This document shows positions 10,023 through 36,966 of a DNA stretch of 47,616 bases, one piece after another. The notes beneath the pieces were generated by a model. The model was not told the DNA's origin. It was given only the letters and a program-made list of their open reading frames with translations, and searched no databases. A program made the translations under genes and the position numbers. The DNA is from Spizellomyces punctatus DAOM BR117. Its lineage: Eukaryota. The stretch is from assembly GCA_000182565.2 (NCBI GenBank), contig KQ257463.1; one strand, written 5' to 3'. How positions within the stretch are numbered: the first letter of the stretch is position 1; each line of letters opens with the position of its first letter.

Positions 10023-11079
10023 ATGCTAGGCTTTGCCGACAACACAACAGAATACGAGCGAAAGCGACAGGAGAGGATTGCTGCCAACCAGGCACTTCTT
10101 CAAAGCTTAGGGATTGAAAGACCGCCCGCTGCACAACCGTTCAGCAAGGCCAAACGCAAAGCCAATAGTGAAGACGCTAGCACACCTGTGGTAAAGAAGA
10201 AGAAAGTAAAGGTCGTCAAGGAGGAGGCTGTAATTGAGGATGATAGCGATCAAACCCTAGTCAGACGGTCTCGGCGGTTGCGGGATAAACCTACGCCCAG
10301 TTTGAAAGACGAGAACATGTACGAAGAAGTGAAGGAGGAGGACGATGGCTTGGTTTCGGTGCCAGTGAAAGAGAAACTCCGGACCAGATTGAGTAGAACG
10401 AGTAGCAAGAAAGTCCCTCGGTATGTTTTGCCACCAATATGCCATACGATGGGATCTTGTCTGAGCTTCTCGTTTTCACAGTGAAAACACATTTGGACAC
10501 ATCCCAGGCGTCCCAGTAGGAAGGAGATGGGCAATGCGAATGGATTGTAGCCACGATGGAGTGCATCGACCTCCTGTTTCAGGCATCCACGGAGGCCCAG
10601 ACGGATGTTATTCCGTGGCACTTAGTGGAGGATACGAAGACGACGTTGATTTTGGTGAAGCCTTTACATACACTGGTGAGGGCGGTCGCGATCTGTCGGG
10701 AACTAAAACAAACCCAAAGAACCTGCGCACAGCTCCACAGTCGAAGGACCAGGTTCTCGACAGAGGGAATCTTGCGCTATGGAAGAGTGCGCAAAACGGC
10801 CTGCCAGTTCGGGTTGTGCGGGGATACAAATTGCCTAGCCCTTACGCTCCGGAAGAAGGGTACAGATACGACGGGCTATACAAGGTGGAAAAGGCATGGA
10901 GCGAAACGGGACTAGCGGGATTTCTGGTCTACAAGTTTGCATTGAAACGGTTGCCGGGCCAGCCCCCTTTACCACGCAATGACGAACAAGACGCAAGTTT
11001 TTGTTCAGAGGACGAGACCAAAAACGTTAAACAGGTGCCTGATTCTGATCAGGATGTTAAATCACAAGAGAACGAATAG
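10023..11079 (+). CDS. SRA/YDG (UHRF1-type SRA) domain protein, 2 exons
   Basis: Intron 10421-10481 joins to [13 protein letters not shown]...[12 protein letters not shown]...[28 protein letters not shown]...VRVVRG...GYRYDGLY, a canonical SRA domain. Confidence 0.95.
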
Positions 11080-11842: not shown

Positions 11843-12210
11843 TAGAGACAAGAGAGTACTTTTATTGCCCAGACCAAATATATTTACAAGACTCTTTCTA
11901 TAAAGTACAAGAACGTCGACGTAGAGAGAGATAATTTGTTATGGCGTTCTCGAGGGACTTGCAGACAAGCAGCTTAATCGCTCGTTGGGATCTTGCACAG
12001 GAAGGGTTTTCCTAGGAAGGCAAAGAGGTTGCCGTGGTCGGTTCGCACTTGTGGAGAAGGTGGAGGTCATCGCGGCCGCTTCGCACTTGTGGAGTAAAGG
12101 TCGAGGTTGCCGTGGTCGCTTGGCACTAGTGGCGTAAATGTCGAGGTCACCGTGGCCGATTCGCGCTTGTAAAGTGAGAGACTGTGATTGAGGACCGGTG
12201 CTTCGCACTG

Positions 12211-13691
12211 GAAAGGCAAAGAGCGTGAAGCATGGGAAGAGTAGAAGCCCAAGTCGAATGCGCCAACTCACCTCAACCTGGTGCCACCCTGCACTTTACT
12301 TCTTTGACGACACGCATTACCAGGCCTCCCGCGCCGAGCCGTAACGCGGCCAACCGAGCCATTTCAGTTCTTCTTTGACGGCGCGGACCAACAAGCCGAG
12401 TCGTGTCGTGAACCATCCGGGCCATTTCACTTCTTTGACGGCGCGGACCAACTAGCCGAGTCCTTTTCTCAACTTGCTTGACGACATGGACCAACAGGCC
12501 GGGCCGTGTCGTGGAACCTACGTGCCGGTCGGTGGAAGCGGACATCGTGGTGGATGTTTCTGAAATGTAGAAAGATGAAGCTGATGCACCAGTGCAAGTA
12601 GAATCAAATAGACTTACTTGTAATTGTCTCCAAGGAGCAGAAGGAAGGTCGAGGTCGCCGTGATCGCTTCGCAGGGGCCGTGGTCGAGATTGCCGTAGTC
12701 GCTTGCCGTGGTCGAGATCGCCGTGGTCGCTTCGCACTAGTGGAGTGAAAGACCGTGATCGAGGACTGAAAGGCAAAGAGGGTGAAGCATGGGAAGAGTA
12801 GAAGCAAAAGTCGAATGCTCGCCAACTCACCTCAGGCTAGCCTGGTGCCACCCTGCACTTTACTTGTTTGACGGCACGTATTACCAGGCCCACCGCGCCG
12901 GGCTGTTTACTTGTTTGACGACGGGCCATCCGCCGGGCAGTAACGTCGGGAACCACGGGCCATAACGCGTTCCTACGAGCCTTTTACTTCTTTGACGACA
13001 TGGACCAACGCCGGAGGTAGAGATTGCCCGTGGCCGCTTCGCACTTGTGGGTGAGAGACCGTGATCGAGTGTTAGACTCGGTTGAAAGCCAAAGAAGATG
13101 ATGCAGAATACTTACTTCATTCGCCAACCTTCAGCGCCTCCGCCTAGCGCGTTGGACTCGGTACGAGCCGACGTCCGACGCCGACTCGTCGGCAGCCTCT
13201 CTATAGTCGGGGGTTCGCTTCGCACTTGTGTGGTCGCTTGCCGTGGTCGCTTCGCACTTGTGCCGTGGTCGCTTGCCGTGTTCGCTTCGCACTTGTGCCG
13301 TGGTCGAGATCGTCGTGGCCGCTTCGTACTTGTGGAGTGAGAGACCGTGGTCGAGTCTGAAAGGCAAAGAGCGTGAAGCATGGGAAGAGTAGAAGCCCAA
13401 GTCGAATGCACCAACTCACCTCAGCCTGGAGCCACCCTTCACTTTACTTCTTTGACGACACGCATTACCAGGCCACCCGCGCCGAGCCGTAACGCGGCCA
13501 ACCGAGCCATTTCAGTTCTTCTTTGACGGCGCGGACCAACAAGCCGAGTCGTGTCGTGAACCATCCGGGCCATTTCACTTCTTTGACGGCGCGGACCAAC
13601 TAGCCGAGTCCTTTTCTCAACTTGCTTGACGACATGGACCAACAGGCCGGGCCGTGTCGTGGAACCTACGTGCCGGTCGGTGGAAGCGGAC
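12211..13691. repeat. 333-bp near-identical duplication with a third partial copy and short GCCGTGGTCGCTTCGCACTTGT-type repeats
   Basis: 12211-12543 and 13359-13691 differ at about five positions by eye. A more diverged partial copy lies at 12768-12900. Short motif clusters at ~12030-12210, 12650-12760, 13020-13060 and 13215-13350. Confidence 0.95.
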
Positions 13692-13737
13692 GTCGAGGAG
13701 CCGATGGTCGATAGTGCCGGACGTTGAGGAGCCGAAG

Positions 13738-13887
13738 GACCGATGCTTGAAGACTGAAGGGGCGACCGATGCTTGAAGACTTGAAGACCGAGAGGCGACC
13801 GATGCTTGAAGACTTGAAGACCGAGAGGCGACCGATGCTTGAAGACTTGAAGACCGAGAGGCGACCGATGCTTGAAGACTGAGAGGC
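13738..13887. repeat. 33-bp minisatellite
   Basis: GACCGATGCTTGAAGACTTGAAGACCGAGAGGC is perfect at 13764, 13797 and 13830, with shortened units at 13738 and 13863. Confidence 0.95.
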
Positions 13888-13930
13888 GGAAGACGAGGAT
13901 AACTGACTGGGGGAAGGCGAGAAAGGGTGC

Positions 13931-13939
13931 CTTTTTATA
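13931..13939 (-). promoter_or_regulatory. TATA box
   Basis: TATAAAAAG on the minus strand upstream of the repeat-built unit. Confidence 0.5.
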
Positions 13940-14037
13940 ACTTTTCAGAGGCCCCCCGGATGCGGAGAAAAAAAAACCCCCAATGCCCCATTTTTTCGTT
14001 TTTTCTTCTCGAAAGAATTCCGTGTTCAGAAGATGAA

Positions 14038-14104
14038 GTCATATGGCATGCCAATATACGCAAAGATCAGGAAGATAAGGTCATATGGCATGCCAATATA
14101 CGCA
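14038..14104. repeat. 25-bp exact direct repeat containing palindrome TGGCATGCCA
   Basis: GTCATATGGCATGCCAATATACGCA at 14038-14062 and 14080-14104 (42-bp period). Confidence 0.9.
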
Positions 14105-14986
14105 GAGAGAAGGTCAGGGGTAGGAGATGGCGCGCGATTCGCGTAGAAAATTGGCCCAGGAGGAAGGGACGCGAAGGACGTCGAGATGGATTGGATAATC
14201 GACTGCTCTTTGATATGAATCTCCAGAGGACGACGAGGACGACGAGGACGATGCGCTTGCTCATATTAGTGGTTGCTGTCGTCTTTTAACGGGTTTTCCT
14301 GCTTTTTTTCTGCATTTCAACGAGCAAAAAAGTGTGAAATCCGGACGAAATTCGGACGAAATTCCAGCAAAATCAGTCGCGCGTGCGTGCATTACGTACG
14401 CGAGGAAGTGTTCAAAAGATCCGCCAGGAGAAGAAGGAGGCCATCGATGGAAGACCAATATTGGGGCGAATGCAACACAAACGAACGTCATCCTCATTTC
14501 AAATCGTTAATTAGCAAAGGGATTGGAAGAAAGAAGAACGATGGGGAGAGATGTGACGAAGAGAAGCTGCGGGCAATGAGTCAGTTGGAGGGGGGTAAAG
14601 CAGACGAGGAAGTCCCCCCGCAAAGAAACTCACCCAAATGGTCCTTCCAATATGTCTTTGCAGTAGTCTTTGTGTTGGAGTAAAGTGCGGGGGCGAACCA
14701 GAGCATGCTTTGTGCAGACCGCACAGACAAGGCGTAGACCGCTCACAGCGAAAAGAGAAACGAGGCAAACTGTTTACAGCGTCATGTATGCTCGCTCGAA
14801 TATCCTTGAATTCCTTCAGAATTCCTTCCAAAATAAAAGACAACACACTATTCTCAAAGTTCATCCTTGAACGGAAAACGACCTGCGTTGGAAGGGTTGG
14901 GAGGAAAAAAAAACGGGTCCATCACTCGGTCGGATGACGCGTTCGGACACCCGTCACTCTGTGCAAAAAGCTGTTTTCAAACAAGG

Positions 14987-15258
14987 GCGAGCTGCTCAAG
15001 AAAGAAGGACTTTCGAGGTGAACAAGGCTTTCTACAATAACGAATCTGTCTAGCCCGAGTACTAAAGAGTGCTCTAACCCTAACCCTGTAGGGAGGATCG
15101 CCGCCTATACGTAAAGTTTCCGCAAGACCCAAACCAACAAAGCGCTGCAGCGTTCTCGGCGACTCCAGTTGTGAACCCAAGTTTTCCCAACGGTTGAACG
15201 TATAGACGCTTGACGGGAGCATTCGGGAGCTTTCTGTTCACTTGTGAAGCCAGCTCGC
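14987..15258 (+). ncRNA. Structured RNA; candidate telomerase RNA template/pseudoknot core
   Basis: Nested helices 14987-14994/15251-15258, 15016-15032/15226-15243 and 15041-15050/15212-15225 enclose hairpin 15057-15074, then TAACCCTAACCCT (15075-15087), then crossing stems 15092-15103/15157-15166 and 15105-15112/15198-15205. G-U pairs mostly favour the + strand. Confidence 0.5.
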
Positions 15259-15480
15259 AATCGCCATACCTTTATTCCCACGAGCCACCAGAAACAGTCG
15301 TTTTAAAAACACATAAATACAAGTCCATTTCTCAAGAATAAATATCCTCAAGTTCCATCGGCCATTTGCCGAGTCCCTACAACCGTTCGCCTGCCTAAGC
15401 TAGTCCACCGATCCTCCCTCTTTGCGCGCTTTTCCACAGCCGAATTTCCTACTCTACTACTCTACTCTGTTGTCCACCTC

Positions 15481-18400
15481 TCAGTTCGATCCTCCATGAA
15501 CAGCTCCAAATCCATTGGATTTCGCTTCCTGATCATGTTGTCTCTGTCGCTGTCGGAACGCTGCGTGCGCATCTTGGATCTCTTGGATGTACTTGTGAAG
15601 TTTTCGCATGCTTACTGGCTTCATGGTGTGGGACAGTGATTTGAGTACTCAGAAAACCGTATGAGAATCGAAATGAGCCCACCTTTGTCAAAAACAGATC
15701 CGCACCAGCCGCCAAAGCAGCTCTCTCATCCTCTGGGTTATCCAATCCAGTCATAACGACAATATTGGTTCGCGGGTGTGGCGTAACGTTTGAACTGCTC
15801 CCTCTCTCGGCAAGGTTGGCTTCTATGGACTCTTTATCGAGAGCGCGAATAGAGGACGTTGCGACGATGCCATTCATTACGGGCATCTGAACATCCATAA
15901 GGATCTGATCAAAGAATGGCATTCATTTTCTTTATGCAAATATGGGCAAATCGCACCAAACACTTACCAATCGGTGCTGCCTCTCACGCCAAGCATCCAC
16001 CGCTAGCTGACCGTTTTCAACAATATCATGTGGGAGGTTCTTGCGGGTGAGAAAGGTGGATAGAATTCGCTGATTGACTGGCACAGTACATGATATTAGC
16101 TTTTTAGATTAGATATAGTAGGCTATTCACTATGCCACTTACTGGCATTGTCCTGGTAATAATAAACGACATCCACAGTCAATGAGAACTGTTAATTGAG
16201 CCAAGGATCATGAATGGATGAACCGCTCCTACCTCTGCGATCAAAATCCTAAATTCATCGATGGCCTCTTCACTGCTGCCCTCACTCCGGTCAGTTATGC
16301 TATTGTTGTCCGATGCACTATCTCCATTTTCTCGAACTGTTATACAACTGTCCGTCCGTTCCCTCGTCAATCCATTCATCTCATACTGCTGCTTCATCTG
16401 GTCCATTTCCAATTCTGCGTCGAGTTTCCCGCGAGTTGCAATCAGATCTCTAAGCGTCGCATCAGAAACGTGCGCCGCTGCTCCAGGTGAATTCATCAAG
16501 ATGTCCCACAAGATGGGCAGAATCTTTGCGGGACCTGCAGGCTTTACCGCAAAACGGATCTAGCAAGAAGAAAACATCATTCTGAGAATGGCTGTCGATC
16601 TTTTCAATTCGTCACAGTCTATTGCATTTACCTGACCGTGCCAAGGAGCGGCCGCTTGGCAGACTTCTTGAAAGTTTTGGAGTGCCGTGAAATAGATGAT
16701 GACGGGCCGCTACAAGAGTTATATGTGAAAACGAACTTCAGTCTGTGCGTAAACTGATAAGTACTTACGTCTTTGGTGTGCGAGATCCTATCTAGCCACC
16801 GCAACTGCCCAACTTCATCGTCTAGGACGAGGATATCGAAAGCTTTCCATTTCTTGCACTCGGCCCCGATATCGACATTATCGACGTCTGAATAGTCCCA
16901 TCGTGCCTCTATCGTCTCAAAAGGAACACCCCATCTCGTTAAATACATGCCCAACCGAGTTCTACCCAGGGAATCGCCTTCCGATTTCCATACTCCAAGT
17001 TTAACGCTGTCAATACGCTCTATAAATTTTTTGCGTTCTGAAACCGGACAGGAAAAGAATTCGCCATCTAAGCGTTGCAGATCTGCATCCACCCAGCTAG
17101 TGTCGGATGGGTAAAACAGATCGATGGTAATTGTTATCGTTGTGCCTGGAGGAGGGACATTGACCTAGTTAAAAAGACATGATGACATAAAGTTCATTTC
17201 ATCCATTCAACCTTGACCCACGACACTATCCACTTCGATTGTTCCACCCATCTCATCCAATAATGTCTTGACGATAGACCTTGAGATAAACAAAAACGGT
17301 TGATGGTACGCCGGTAGGGACTTGTTAAGTTGAACACTCACATTCCCAATCCTGTCCCTTCCACTGCCTTGATCAAACGATCCTTGTTCGTAGCTTCCTG
17401 CTCAAATGGCGCAAACATCTTTTCCAAAAAGCTCTCCGCCATTCCGCATCCACTGTCCGAAATTCGAAATGTCACACGTCGTTTGTGATGGTAATCAGTT
17501 TCAGGCTCATCGTCAACTGAACAGGGACGCAAGTCTGCTGTTTTTATTTCTTCCAACGATGATTTGTCAGACTCTTGATCGTCTGCATCAGAAAATGACT
17601 CTTCATTTGCGTCCGATGGCTTGTTCTCTTTGGAACACCCATTGCTGCATGTTGGCCGCAATTGTCTCGGGCGGTCGCATGCACATGAATTGCAAGCTGC
17701 TTTAGGGGCGGCCTCCTTGAGGGGATTACTTTCTGGAGGAGCCTCTGTATCGGTGATGATGAGGTCAACCGCACCGACCTGCGTAAACTTGATGCTGTTG
17801 CCCAATAGCTACAAGACAACTTTGTTAGTACTACGTTCGTGTGCCTTGTCAACAATGCTTACATTCACGAGAATCTGTCGTAGGCATCCTTCAGAACTAA
17901 TGGTTCGCCTAAAATATGGTGAGAGGGACTCTAACCAGTTCACATTTCAGTAATTGGGCTAAGGCTAAAGTCGTTAATAAAAGACACGAACTCACCGAGA
18001 AAGAAGCTCATTGTAATACCCTTTTTAAATCCCACCGGACCCAAACTAGATAGGACCTCTTCAATGAGCTTGAACTGGTAAAATGACATGGAAATTGTTA
18101 ACAATAAATAAACGCTCGTTAACATATTCTTCTTACCAAATCAAACTCGTAGACATTCTCACATTGTTTTGCACCACTTTCTGCTTTGCTGTAGACCAAG
18201 ACTGTGCCCATGGCTTTAGCGATACCTTTTGCAATGTAGACAAAGTGTGTGCCTACCTTGGTTTATAATCCCCAGCAAGTTCTGACCGGAGCACTCTTGG
18301 AGGGTTCACGAGTCAGTTGGGCGGCAAAATAGATGCAAACTCACAATCGCAAGTTCACCTATGGTACTTAATAAGGTCCGTTGCGAATCATTTGTACATA

Positions 18401-19940
18401 AGTCGTTCAAGAGCTCTACGTTTGCGAGTATCCCGTGCAATGGTCTATCGAGGCAAACCGAGGGTCAAAAAAGAGCCCGTCATATGCAATGACAACGAAA
18501 TATACGATACGTTACGTCCTAAGTTCATGGGACATTGAAGAGATAAACTGAATTACAGTCAAAAGAAACTTCAGCAAGAAAATTCAATCACACATTGAAA
18601 GCAAGTGCAAACGTAACGCACCCTGCTTTTGGCTTGATTCGCCTCCCGCTCGTGTTGAACGTCGTCTTGTAATCTTTTTTGGCACTTCATGAGCTGGTCA
18701 AAGGACCCCAGGACGTAAAATCCGCAAGTGATGACATATATGTCCCCCAGCACCCAGTACCACTGATGTGATTCCAGAGGTGGGAGTTGCCGACCTGAAA
18801 ATGGCGACACTGTGTGAGTGCCGCTTAATCATCTTTGTGAATTGCTTGCAATATCCCACCAAGGCTCCAGTAAAAAGACCACATATACAGCAAGACGGTG
18901 ATGTATCCGACATGGGTTCCAAACTTGCGATCGACCAGAAAGTATCCAAACGGCGGGCCAATCAGGAATCCAGAATGCCTGTGACATTAAATTGCAATAT
19001 GTGTGATGATCTGGCTGAAATCAATGAAGGAAATTGTCAGCTACGCACCCCAGTTTCCAAAACGCATCCGATACCATGCAAATGAAGGTAAACAAAGCTG
19101 TGACGGAGGTTAATCTTCCTTTTCGCGATCATCGGCGCCACGCAAGCAATTACCAAGAATAAAGAAAATAGCGATCTTGGCACACAGTCGAATATCTATC
19201 TAAATGCCATTCTGCGTAAGACACATAAGGTCTTACAAGTGTTGATACAGGCGATGGTATCATACTTTATCGGAACGGACACCCGCCAAGCAAGCAGAGA
19301 AAATGATTGTTCCCGAAAATGTCAGCGGGTCCATAATCTGAGAAGGTCTGAGTTGATCGCGTCTGAAAGCGGGAGAGGTATAATGCTTACAGATAGGTAT
19401 GCTGGTGGAACACTGTATCCTATTGATGTCGCAGCATTTTAGAAAAATCCGAATAAGGCAACGGCCACAGTAAATGGGAATTTACGACGTACCACTCTTG
19501 GCTTTCATTATCACAAGGACCAAGTCCTGTACGGTGAAGAAGGCCTTCCAAGAGATCACCGATTATTATCCACAATGAAGTAGGATACAGATGTGTGCGC
19601 TTATGGAATTGTACCATTGTAACAAGGGTTGTAAGCAGCAGGCACACTGTGATGCGTGTCTGCAGCAGCTGGCGCATCGCTTCAAAGTCATCTCCAGATC
19701 CAACACGTTTGCGCTTTATTCGCTTTGGTATGAAGAAATCGATGCCATAGATGATGACCCCCAAGACCTTAAACCGTACGCTAGTTTCGACAATCATTGA
19801 TATTTGAGAGGGTATATGTGCACATTGCCTAGCACCTGTAAGGTAGTGTACCTGTCTGCGCCTGAACCCTGGTTTCCTCGGGGAAGTACAGGCTCATAAC
19901 TTGACCTTTTGCGCATGTTCTTTGGAGACCAGATGGACAT
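15481..19940 (-). CDS. Membrane-bound hybrid histidine kinase (TM region, HisKA, HATPase_c, degenerate receiver-like region, receiver)
   Basis: Spliced H-box ANQAKSR|FISSMSHELRT; N-box GNSIKFT; G1 DSGCGM; F-box FAPFEQ; G2 GTGLG; receiver ILIAE|DNAI|NQRIL...ILMDVQMPVMNG...MTG...FLTK|PV. Stop at 15481-15483. Start 19940 inferred by splicing. Confidence 0.93.
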
Positions 19941-35022: not shown

Positions 35023-36966
35023 TTAAACGGTCAACTCTCGAACAATCTTGACCTTTCCCCCAATGTGAACCTTTTTCCACATTTCCCTCTTGGCTTCTGT
35101 GCTGGCGACGCGTTTGACACTCGCCGGTAATGCAGGCGTCGCCTCCAACAAGGTCTCAATAGCAGCCTCGAGTCCCATGCGGTGAATGGCAAACAGCGAC
35201 CAGGAAAATGTGCGGACAAAGGCGTCCACGTCTGCGAGGCGGTTGAAGCGCTGTTCATTGAGCGTCGATGCGAGGGAGCGGAGGAGGCCGCGTGTAGCAT
35301 CCATGGGGAGGTGGGTGGCTTCTTTGGGGCAAGCAACGAGGTGACCCATGGCGGTCGTGTAAATGGGGTGAACCTTGTGATACTCGGCGTCATCGGCTTC
35401 AAATTGGACGCCCGATTCGTTGGTCCGAGAAAGGTTGAGGAGCCAGACAGCCATGGTGAAGGCAGGCACGCGAATCACGTCAGTTTTGTTGCCAGTGGCG
35501 GCCATGGCGCGCTCGACCGAAGACAACAATCGGTCAGAGATTTTGCTGGTTGCTCGGGCACCGACGCGGCGAACAGTGTCGTTGAGACTAGCATCTGAAA
35601 ACCGGTTTCGGATGCATTCCGTGTACTTTTTGAGTTCAGCAGGCTTGCCGCTGAGGAAGGTGCACCATTCGTTTTGTGCCTTGGTGAGGAGTCGAGCAAT
35701 GGTTGGCTTGTGCATTGTGTCGTGAATGTACTTGCAGCCAAGCCGGTGGCCGCAGGTAGCAACGATGAGATGACCAGCATTAAGGCAGTAGAATTTACGC
35801 TGCCAGTACTCGGCGCAAGAATCGACAACTTGCACGCCAACCTTTTCCCAGCCGGGAGTCGTCTCGGGGAATCGTCCGCGCTCAACAACCAGTTGGCGGA
35901 AGGATTCGCAACCAATGGTCAGAGTCGAGTCGAATCCCATTTCCTTGTGTGCGTCCTTGCGGAACGCCTCGGTAGGCTCGGGTGTGATGCGGTCGACGAG
36001 CGTAACGGGAAAGTCGACATTGTCGTCAACCCAAGAGACCAGCTCAGGGTCGACAAGCTTGAGAAACTCGACAAACACTTTTTTCATCGTGCTACTGTTT
36101 TGCTCGATATTGTCGAGAGACATGATCGTCATGGGAGTCTTGATGGTCTGGGCACGAAGTCTGAGACCGGCTGCAAGGTAACCGTAAATAGATTTGGGTC
36201 GGTCGGGTTGTGCCAAGTCGTGAATAATGTCGGGATGCAACACATCGAGTTTGCCGCCTTCGGCAAGGTAGTATCCCTTGTTGGTGACTGTGACGGTAAC
36301 CATCTTGATGTTTTCCTCGCCCATTCTACTAATGAGAGCACGAGGATCTTTTGGACCAAACATGGTGTCTACCACGGGAGCGAGTACCGAGGAGCTGCGG
36401 TTCTGGTTCTCACGGACGACGAGGACGTACATGCCGTCTTGCTTGCGAAGAGCAGAGATGGTCTTGTTGCTTCGGATGGATGTGGCGACAATACCCCATC
36501 GCTGGTCGTGCTCGAGCATGTCGTTGACGTACGATGCCATGTGAGCAAGGGCAAAGTTTCCGGTACCAATGTGGAGGATACCGGGCGTCACAGTAGCCGG
36601 GTTGTAAGCGGGGCGCTTGACCGTGGCGGGCAGCTGATGCAGAGTGCTACGACAGAGCTGGTAGCAAGGCTTTTTGGGAACAAGATCTTCGGCACTGCCT
36701 GTCTTGATGCGGTTGGCATTGGGTCTTGAAGCGAGTTCGGTCAAAATGGCACGAGCTGCATCGAGCTTGGTCCGTACGAAATCCTTTTGCAAGGTTGGGT
36801 CGACCTGGGATTTGCGCTCATAGTGCTTCTCAGTGTCGCCAGCGGCACGATGAAGCTTCTTGTCTTGAACGCGGTATGCAGGAGCCTTTTAATTTTAAAA
36901 GGGGGGCATTTGTGAGTAAAGACTGAAATCAACAAAAGTAAAAGACATGTCCTTGAAACTCACCAT
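35023..36966 (-). CDS. Long-chain mannitol dehydrogenase family oxidoreductase
   Basis: GILHIGTGNF, TVTNKGY, MSLDN, LVDRITP and catalytic K-x4-N-x2-H (KFYCLNAGH). ATG-only first exon 36966-36964 and intron 36963-36886 (GTGAGT...AAG) give in-frame MAPAYRVQDKK...LQKDFV. Confidence 0.9.

Follow-up and report, generated by a model that had tools for sequence, protein, structure and literature searches.

The stretch of DNA analysed here (the window, 47,616 nucleotides (nt) of contig KQ257463.1) comes from the chytrid fungus Spizellomyces punctatus DAOM BR117, and our subject is the segment at positions 14987-15258, a candidate telomerase RNA encoded on the plus strand. The segment lies outside coding sequence, in a gap that separates the 3' end of a hybrid histidine kinase gene from the region upstream of the next gene on the minus strand. 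In this gap a telomere-like tract directly follows a short hairpin, and the tract could be the template of a telomerase RNA, an element acting at the level of DNA, or an incidental part of some other non-coding RNA.

The telomere-like tract, the abutting hairpin and the surrounding helices

The central features are as follows.

15057-15074, plus strand: hairpin of 7 base pairs (bp), GAGUACU-AAAG-AGUGCUC, with a 4-nt loop; candidate template boundary element, from sequence and folding
15075-15087, plus strand: UAACCCUAACCCU, candidate template with two full repeats, which would specify TTAGGG; read from the sequence and unique in the window
15089-15093, plus strand: UAGGG, inverted repeat core and predicted partner of CCCUA at 15078-15082 in the folding ensemble

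If the tract were a template, it would be a perfect two-repeat template for TTAGGG, the repeat that the first-pass annotation of this DNA had named. It is the sole match to UAACCCUAACCCU in the 47.6-kb window at no more than one mismatch, and such a match occurred in 2 of 100 shuffles, while the single hexamer CCCTAA is not enriched in the window (9 observed vs 15 expected). (TTAGGG)n telomeres are reported in the chytrids B. dendrobatidis and B. salamandrivorans; a literature search for the telomere repeat of S. punctatus itself returned nothing relevant. The tract contains CCCUAA, the core that the published Aspergillus comparison gives for the templates of all 13 Aspergilli, and also the human template string exactly as printed there (PMC3603654).

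The hairpin contains one G.U pair, has a folding energy of -7.2 kcal/mol and pair probabilities of 0.89-0.98, and ends on the base directly 5' of the tract, exactly where it had been placed. Chance rates for this arrangement were estimated at mock template starts, which were either all window positions on both strands (94,432) or 3000 random ones. A hairpin of at least 7 bp with at most one G.U pair and a loop of 3-8 nt, ending 0-2 nt upstream of the mock start, was found at 383 of the 94,432 positions (0.41%), and relaxing the stem to at least 6 bp raised this to 1354 positions (1.4%). The hairpin and the crossing helices described below occur jointly at 18 of the 94,432 positions (0.02%), which correspond to six loci including the candidate.

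Downstream of the tract begin two helices that pair in crossing order, and three further helices close the whole domain.

15092-15103, plus strand: crossing helix 1, 5' arm GGAG-GA-UCGCCG, pairing with 15157-15166 (sequence)
15157-15166, plus strand: crossing helix 1, 3' arm CGGCGACUCC (sequence)
15105-15112, plus strand: crossing helix 2, 5' arm CUAUACGU, pairing with 15198-15205 (sequence)
15198-15205, plus strand: crossing helix 2, 3' arm ACGUAUAG (sequence)
14987-14994, plus strand: outer closing helix, 5' arm GCGAGCUG, pairing with 15251-15258 (pair probability 0.52-1.0)
15251-15258, plus strand: outer closing helix, 3' arm CAGCUCGC (sequence)
15018-15024, plus strand: second closing helix, 5' arm GUGAACA, pairing with 15235-15241 (pair probability 0.76-0.97)
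15235-15241, plus strand: second closing helix, 3' arm UGUUCAC (sequence)
15041-15050, plus strand: third closing helix, 5' arm CGAAUCUGUC, pairing with 15212-15216 and 15221-15225 across a 4-nt bulge (pair probability 0.2-0.5)
15212-15225, plus strand: third closing helix, 3' arm, GACGG (15212-15216) followed by AUUCG (15221-15225) (sequence)

All helices named in the first-pass annotation can be read in the sequence, at the positions it gave or 1-2 bases off. They differ in weight: among the structural signals only the abutting hairpin is strong, that of the crossing helices is weak, and the three closing helices, as a stacked set, are no more than chance would give. The crossing pairing does exist, with helices of 10 and 8 bp, although a total of at least 18 bp (each helix at least 8 bp, small bulge allowed) was found in 5.5% of 3000 random 150-nt segments. 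In the folding ensemble the 6-bp part of crossing helix 1 reaches a probability of about 0.64, its 4-bp GGAG/CUCC extension about 0, and crossing helix 2 about 0.19.

Neighbouring genes and transcription of the plus strand

To the right of the candidate lies the kinase gene, which is convergent with the proposed transcript.

15484-19940, minus strand: hybrid histidine kinase gene SPPG_07171, with the protein mapped onto the window; the last base of the coding sequence is 15484
15272-15277, minus strand: AATAAA, probably the poly(A) signal used by the convergent histidine kinase mRNA, judged from the sequence

The same mapping shows the coding sequence of this gene to be interrupted by short introns. 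The open reading frame (ORF) at 16628-17164 on the minus strand matches, with 100% identity, a portion of a 986-amino-acid protein of Spizellomyces punctatus DAOM BR117, named uncharacterized protein at NCBI, and its product has 85% identity to a protein of Spizellomyces sp. 'palustris'. Because this kinase exon is 100% identical to the S. punctatus entry, the window is chytrid fungus DNA. DNA contigs span 14825-16279 without differences, at a depth of 2.5 that equals the depth of the flanks; thus, the candidate locus is not a high-copy repeat, an origin that the first-pass annotation had listed among the observations that would speak against its proposal.

Transcription was assessed in one RNA-seq run (X7), which carries the same species label; about 6% of the run was read, and depth was counted in 151-nt bins. 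Two contig runs labelled as RNA (X8 and X9) covered no part of the 4.5-kb stretch, its highly expressed genes included, and are therefore uninformative. Reads with their first mate on the minus strand show the intron at 13044-13115 (72 nt), whose borders are CT..AC on the plus strand and hence GT..AG on the minus strand. Reads of this kind have poly(T) loose ends before 13429, which are the poly(A) tails of minus-strand RNA, and the minus-strand signal has a peak in the 3' untranslated region of the kinase (15318-15468). Given the intron orientation, the poly(A) tails and this peak, the first mates of X7 are sense to the RNA. Reads appear to pile up no more than about 300 nt from poly(A) sites, the pattern of a 3'-tag library. 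The AATAAA at 15272-15277 and the minus-strand read peak at 15318-15468 place the end of the kinase mRNA most likely near 15250, where it would coincide with the end of the candidate.

The plus-strand depths in X7 around the candidate are the following.

14714-14864, plus strand: depth 0
14865-15015, plus strand: depth 0
15016-15166, plus strand: depth 1.07
15167-15317, plus strand: depth 2.46
15318-15468, plus strand: depth 0.54
15469-15619, plus strand: depth 0.28
15620-15770, plus strand: depth 0.38
15771-15921, plus strand: depth 1.5
15922-16072, plus strand: depth 8.74
16073-16223, plus strand: depth 9.74
16224-16374, plus strand: depth 0

A plus-strand transcript, which had been named as a check on the telomerase RNA proposal, is therefore seen as a weak signal at 15016-15317. 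One more element completes the picture of this RNA.

15337-15342, plus strand: AAUAAA, probably the poly(A) signal of the weak transcript over the candidate; a motif match that the depth pattern appears to fit

Together, these data suggest a weak polyadenylated plus-strand RNA that ends near 15360 and covers at least part of the candidate. Its signal first appears in the bin that holds the tract (15016-15166). The lack of plus-strand reads upstream of the A9 run at 14905 faintly hints at a start after approximately 14915. Between 14937 and 15496 (562 nt) there is no ATG on the plus strand; the stretch is also devoid of TGG and is G-poor (19% G). As it is only the second longest ATG-free gap on the plus strand, we treat it as weak evidence.

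Farther right, a second plus-strand signal is found at 15771-16223. It comes from a polyadenylated RNA antisense to the last kinase exons, with an AAUAAA at 16161, an abrupt stop after 16223 and an end at about 16200, and with its depth of 8.7-9.7 in X7 it is approximately ten times as strong as the sense signal of the kinase over those bins.

The plus-strand RNA at the candidate may be a non-coding RNA of another kind, in which the telomere-like tract is incidental or serves as the strand of a local stem, and is not copied by telomerase. It would then be either a short polyadenylated long non-coding RNA or the 5' part of a longer kinase-antisense RNA ending near 16200. The plus-strand signal over 15016-15317, the stronger poly(A) signal of the kinase-antisense RNA at 15922-16223, the absence of ATG for 562 nt and the predicted pairing of one half of the tract are all consistent with such an RNA. 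On the other hand, the minimum free energies (MFE) of folding show no surplus of structure on the plus strand, as the following z-scores indicate.

14987-15258, plus strand: MFE z-score -1.40
14987-15258, minus strand: MFE z-score +0.22
15040-15230 (inner 191 nt), plus strand: MFE z-score -0.14
15259-15560, plus strand: MFE z-score +0.51, essentially unstructured
15771-16200, plus strand: MFE z-score -0.49

Nor does any Rfam family match, and an unrelated non-coding RNA would leave a perfect two-repeat tract directly after a stable hairpin without explanation. We therefore consider a non-coding RNA of another kind improbable.

On the left side of the candidate, the stretch 12000-14400 contains many tandem repeats and two related, strongly expressed minus-strand transcription units. 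These repeat-rich units stand in tandem at 12273-14038; their ORFs have about 80 amino acids in common and are without a Pfam match. Their depth in X7 reaches 265, and they include the 72-nt GT..AG intron at 13044-13115 and a poly(A) site at about 13429. The reads carry numerous variant letters here, which suggests further paralogues or alleles. Among the repeats, a 33-nt unit is present in 4.1 copies at 13746-13880 with 97% identity, and more repeats of 26-42 nt lie within 12025-14108.

Two other observations concern more distant parts of the window. At 35023-36888 on the minus strand, a long intron-free ORF encodes a mannitol dehydrogenase whose nearest protein-atlas clusters are all bacterial (Actinomycetota); it may be of horizontal origin, although such atlas rows do not prove a transfer. 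An ORF at 10465-11079 on the plus strand has a strong SAD/SRA (methyl-cytosine-binding) domain (E = 2e-50).

Weighing a telomerase RNA against a DNA-level element

If the candidate is the core of a telomerase RNA, one would look for the domains that such RNAs have elsewhere. The points gathered in this and the next two paragraphs weigh against that reading. In the proposed pseudoknot the loops measure 1, 44 and 31 nt; loop 1 (1 nt) and loop 2 (44 nt) are atypical, and the crossing helices lack U-rich and A-rich strands, there being no runs of U or A where a triple helix needs them. A scan for a triplex pseudoknot signature gave 0 matches in 15040-16400, against a background of 0.73 per 1360-nt chunk; it is a crude heuristic, which bulged or interrupted triplexes can escape. 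No P6.1-type hairpin (4 bp with a NUNGN loop) was found on the plus strand in 14700-16400. The vertebrate-type P6.1 consensus AGAGNUNGNCUCU, searched for in the whole window with one mismatch allowed, is absent near the locus; its single match, at 36034, falls within a coding ORF on the opposite strand. The caveats attached to the first-pass annotation, namely atypical loops, no U-rich or A-rich strands and no CR4/5 (P6.1), were accurate. The splice-type 3' end module (AUAAGU..GCURAC, a 5' splice site plus a branch point) is absent from the window, and no Sm-like AU4-6G site was seen on inspection by eye. The Rfam scan that the annotation had suggested (4227 families) gave no match at gathering score in the whole window; at E values up to 10 there was nothing telomerase-like in 13500-17000 and no match of any kind in 14960-15290 (331 nt).

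The fold is likewise ordinary. Three or more nested enclosing stems surround 37% of 3000 random positions, so that the three closing helices, which had been claimed to close the whole and are indeed present in the sequence, do not rise above chance as a nested set. There is no surplus of stems of at least 7 bp in the region, as 95% of random segments have an equal number. The closing helices, the stem counts and the folding energies are all at chance level.

The RNA and the tract raise further points. The plus-strand signal amounts to approximately 9 reads of 60 nt, as estimated from the depths, in a single run that looks 3'-tag-like, and bins of 151 nt leave it undistinguished whether the tract lies inside or outside the RNA. 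In the ensemble, the tract half at 15078-15082 is paired with the UAGGG at 15089-15093, with an unpaired probability of 0.05-0.19, and this pairing suits a cluster of DNA motifs as well as an RNA. The perfect tract, at 13 nt, also exceeds most known templates, which are given as 8-11 nt in the available accounts (PMC3603654, PMC9564094).

Homologues were sought in two other ways. A metagenome scan with the last large kinase exon returned 80 loci, all of them generic receiver domains at about 40% identity and none an orthologue, and the minus-strand frame that is open across the candidate, used as a protein query to pick up translated homologous DNA, gave no match. Two other classes of RNA were considered and rejected. 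For a transcript of RNA polymerase III, inspection by eye showed no convincing A or B boxes, and a T4 run is first met 43 nt beyond the closing helix; for an H/ACA or C/D small nucleolar RNA (snoRNA) downstream of the tract, there was no support by eye or from Rfam.

Several of these points bear equally on an alternative in which the tract is a telomere-like element at the level of DNA, regulatory or neutral, and the helices around it are coincidental. If regulatory, it would be bound by a TTAGGG-binding Myb factor (Teb1/Tbf1/TRF-like) as a promoter or boundary element, and the unit served would be either the weak plus-strand transcript or the strongly expressed minus-strand gene to the left; if neutral, it would be an interstitial telomere-like tract. 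TTAGGG motifs are described as promoter elements in fungi: Teb1 is reported to bind many promoters that have the motif, among them the 17-bp AACCCT box that every core histone gene of fission yeast carries (PMC5128866), while in S. cerevisiae Tbf1 is reported to act upstream of snoRNA genes (PMC7952879). At our locus, the inverted UAGGG begins 1 nt past the tract, so that 19 bp hold the motif core three times with both orientations represented, a cluster that suits a protein-binding site. Given the size of the read bins, the plus-strand RNA could begin downstream of the tract. The chance-level closing helices and folding energy, and the absence of every canonical telomerase RNA domain save the template and the boundary hairpin, also agree with a DNA element. 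The genome of S. punctatus is presumably about 24 Mb in size; by simple arithmetic a few chance occurrences of a 13-nt tract in any phase would be expected in it, which again fits this alternative.

A DNA site, on the other hand, does not predict an RNA hairpin that ends exactly at the edge of the tract, an arrangement expected by chance at 0.41% of positions, or at 0.02% together with the crossing helices. Moreover, the motif is not enriched in the window, there is no obvious plus-strand target gene downstream, where the sequence is ATG-free for 562 nt, and the start of the minus-strand gene is approximately 1 kb away. The Tay1 family is reported to be confined to Dikarya. TRF/Tbf1-like proteins are older than the Tay1 family. 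Overall, we regard a DNA-level element as quite possible, though distinctly below an even chance.

Returning to telomerase RNA, the intergenic tract, the transcribed strand and the abutting hairpin with its chance rate of 0.4% speak for it; the lack of a triple helix and of P6.1, an unremarkable folding energy, the unusual length of the perfect tract and the inverted motif speak against it. The identification proposed in the first-pass annotation is partly supported: the template-like tract, the abutting hairpin and the weak plus-strand RNA fit it, and a pseudoknot triplex, P6.1, a 3' module and an Rfam match were looked for and not found. The missing canonical domains lower the claim and do not exclude it, because small insect RNAs lack domains and echinoderm and flagellate telomerase RNAs are described as lacking P6.1 (PMC4993307). 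We think that the locus may well be the template core of the S. punctatus telomerase RNA, in a compact and non-canonical form, and we place this only a little short of an even chance. The locus is thus a serious but unproven candidate for the telomerase RNA of chytrids.

Proposed mechanism and comparison with known systems

If the locus encodes a telomerase RNA, we infer that it would work as follows. A short plus-strand transcript without AUG would start between approximately 14915 and 15000, and its polyadenylated form would end near 15360. The reverse transcriptase would be offered UAACCCUAACCCU (15075-15087) as a template, on which the chromosome end would be aligned by the 3' half while the 5' half would be copied into repeats in the GGTTAG phase. 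The hairpin at 15057-15074 would act as a template-adjacent boundary element and halt copying at U15075. Closure of the domain would fall to the helices 14987-94/15251-58 and 15018-24/15235-41, and the two crossing helices would stand in for the pseudoknot.

Telomerase RNAs are known, according to the accounts available, from vertebrates, other animals, Ascomycota and Basidiomycota (PMC11892584, PMC3592445, PMC9564094). In the literature outside subscription journals and supplements we found no description of a telomerase RNA from a chytrid or another early-diverging fungus, except for an unconfirmed ciliate-like candidate reported in Lichtheimia, the single early-diverging proposal found. The present RNA could be the first from Chytridiomycota, some 300-400 nt long, with a two-repeat template, a ciliate- or echinoderm-like boundary hairpin, a pseudoknot lacking a triple helix, and no P6.1; so specific a description is tentative, and we rate it well under an even chance. 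Placed near the base of the fungal tree, a telomerase RNA from a chytrid would reveal what RNA domains were present in the ancestor common to fungi and animals. If the description is true, chytrids have lost the canonical two-domain design of opisthokonts, or that design goes back less far than has been assumed; if the tract is a telomere-like promoter element instead, the finding is ordinary. As S. punctatus is reported to be genetically transformable (PMC7213984), the candidate is directly testable.

Compared with TTAGGG-type promoter elements (the Teb1 AACCCT box and Tbf1 sites, as described), the candidate is similar in having tandem AACCCT repeats in non-coding DNA near a transcription unit. 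Those elements, in contrast, are located upstream of defined genes, namely those for histones and snoRNAs, and do not require an RNA hairpin, whereas the candidate has no evident target gene.

The degenerate small telomerase RNA of lepidopteran insects, as it is described (PMC11892584), comes from an unrelated lineage; it is a precedent, by description and not by structural comparison, for a small RNA without key canonical domains.

In ciliates, flagellates and echinoderms, the protein-binding elements of the telomerase RNA (helix II/IV, eCR4/5) are without an identified equivalent in the candidate. At the same time, a short local stem-loop immediately 5' of the template (P1.1) is described in these groups (PMC4993307), as seen here, and a local template-adjacent stem-loop is reported as the boundary element type of fungi, ciliates and echinoderms (PMC4993307, PMC3603654).

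The closest comparison is with the telomerase RNAs (TERs) of Pezizomycotina. As reported, the core of N. crassa TER comprises the template, a boundary element, helices PK1, PK2 and PK2.1 of the pseudoknot and a pair of core-enclosing helices (PMC3592445), with a minimal active core of 295 nt and an essential P6.1 of 4 bp with the loop NUNGN (PMC3592445; Qi et al. 2013). Aspergillus TERs are described as 1.6-2.1 kb long, with a boundary helix about 2 nt from the template and a pseudoknot with a U-A.U triple (PMC3603654; Kuprys et al. 2013); a compact three-way junction bearing a P6.1-like stem is also reported for them, along with an Sm-like site, the 5' splice site AUAAGU and a branch point (PMC3603654). 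The same two domains are given for basidiomycete telomerase RNA (PMC9564094), and P6.1 is described as conserved in vertebrates, Ascomycota and Basidiomycota (PMC3592445, PMC9564094). Unlike the TERs of Pezizomycotina, which reach 1.6-2.1 kb, the candidate lacks P6.1, a triplex pseudoknot, splice-type 3' signals and similarity in sequence or to a model. What it has in common with those of N. crassa and Aspergillus is the order of elements, that is, putative enclosing helices, boundary helix, TTAGGG template and crossing helices, together with a boundary helix 0-2 nt from the template and a domain of similar size (272 nt vs 295 nt for the minimal active core of N. crassa).
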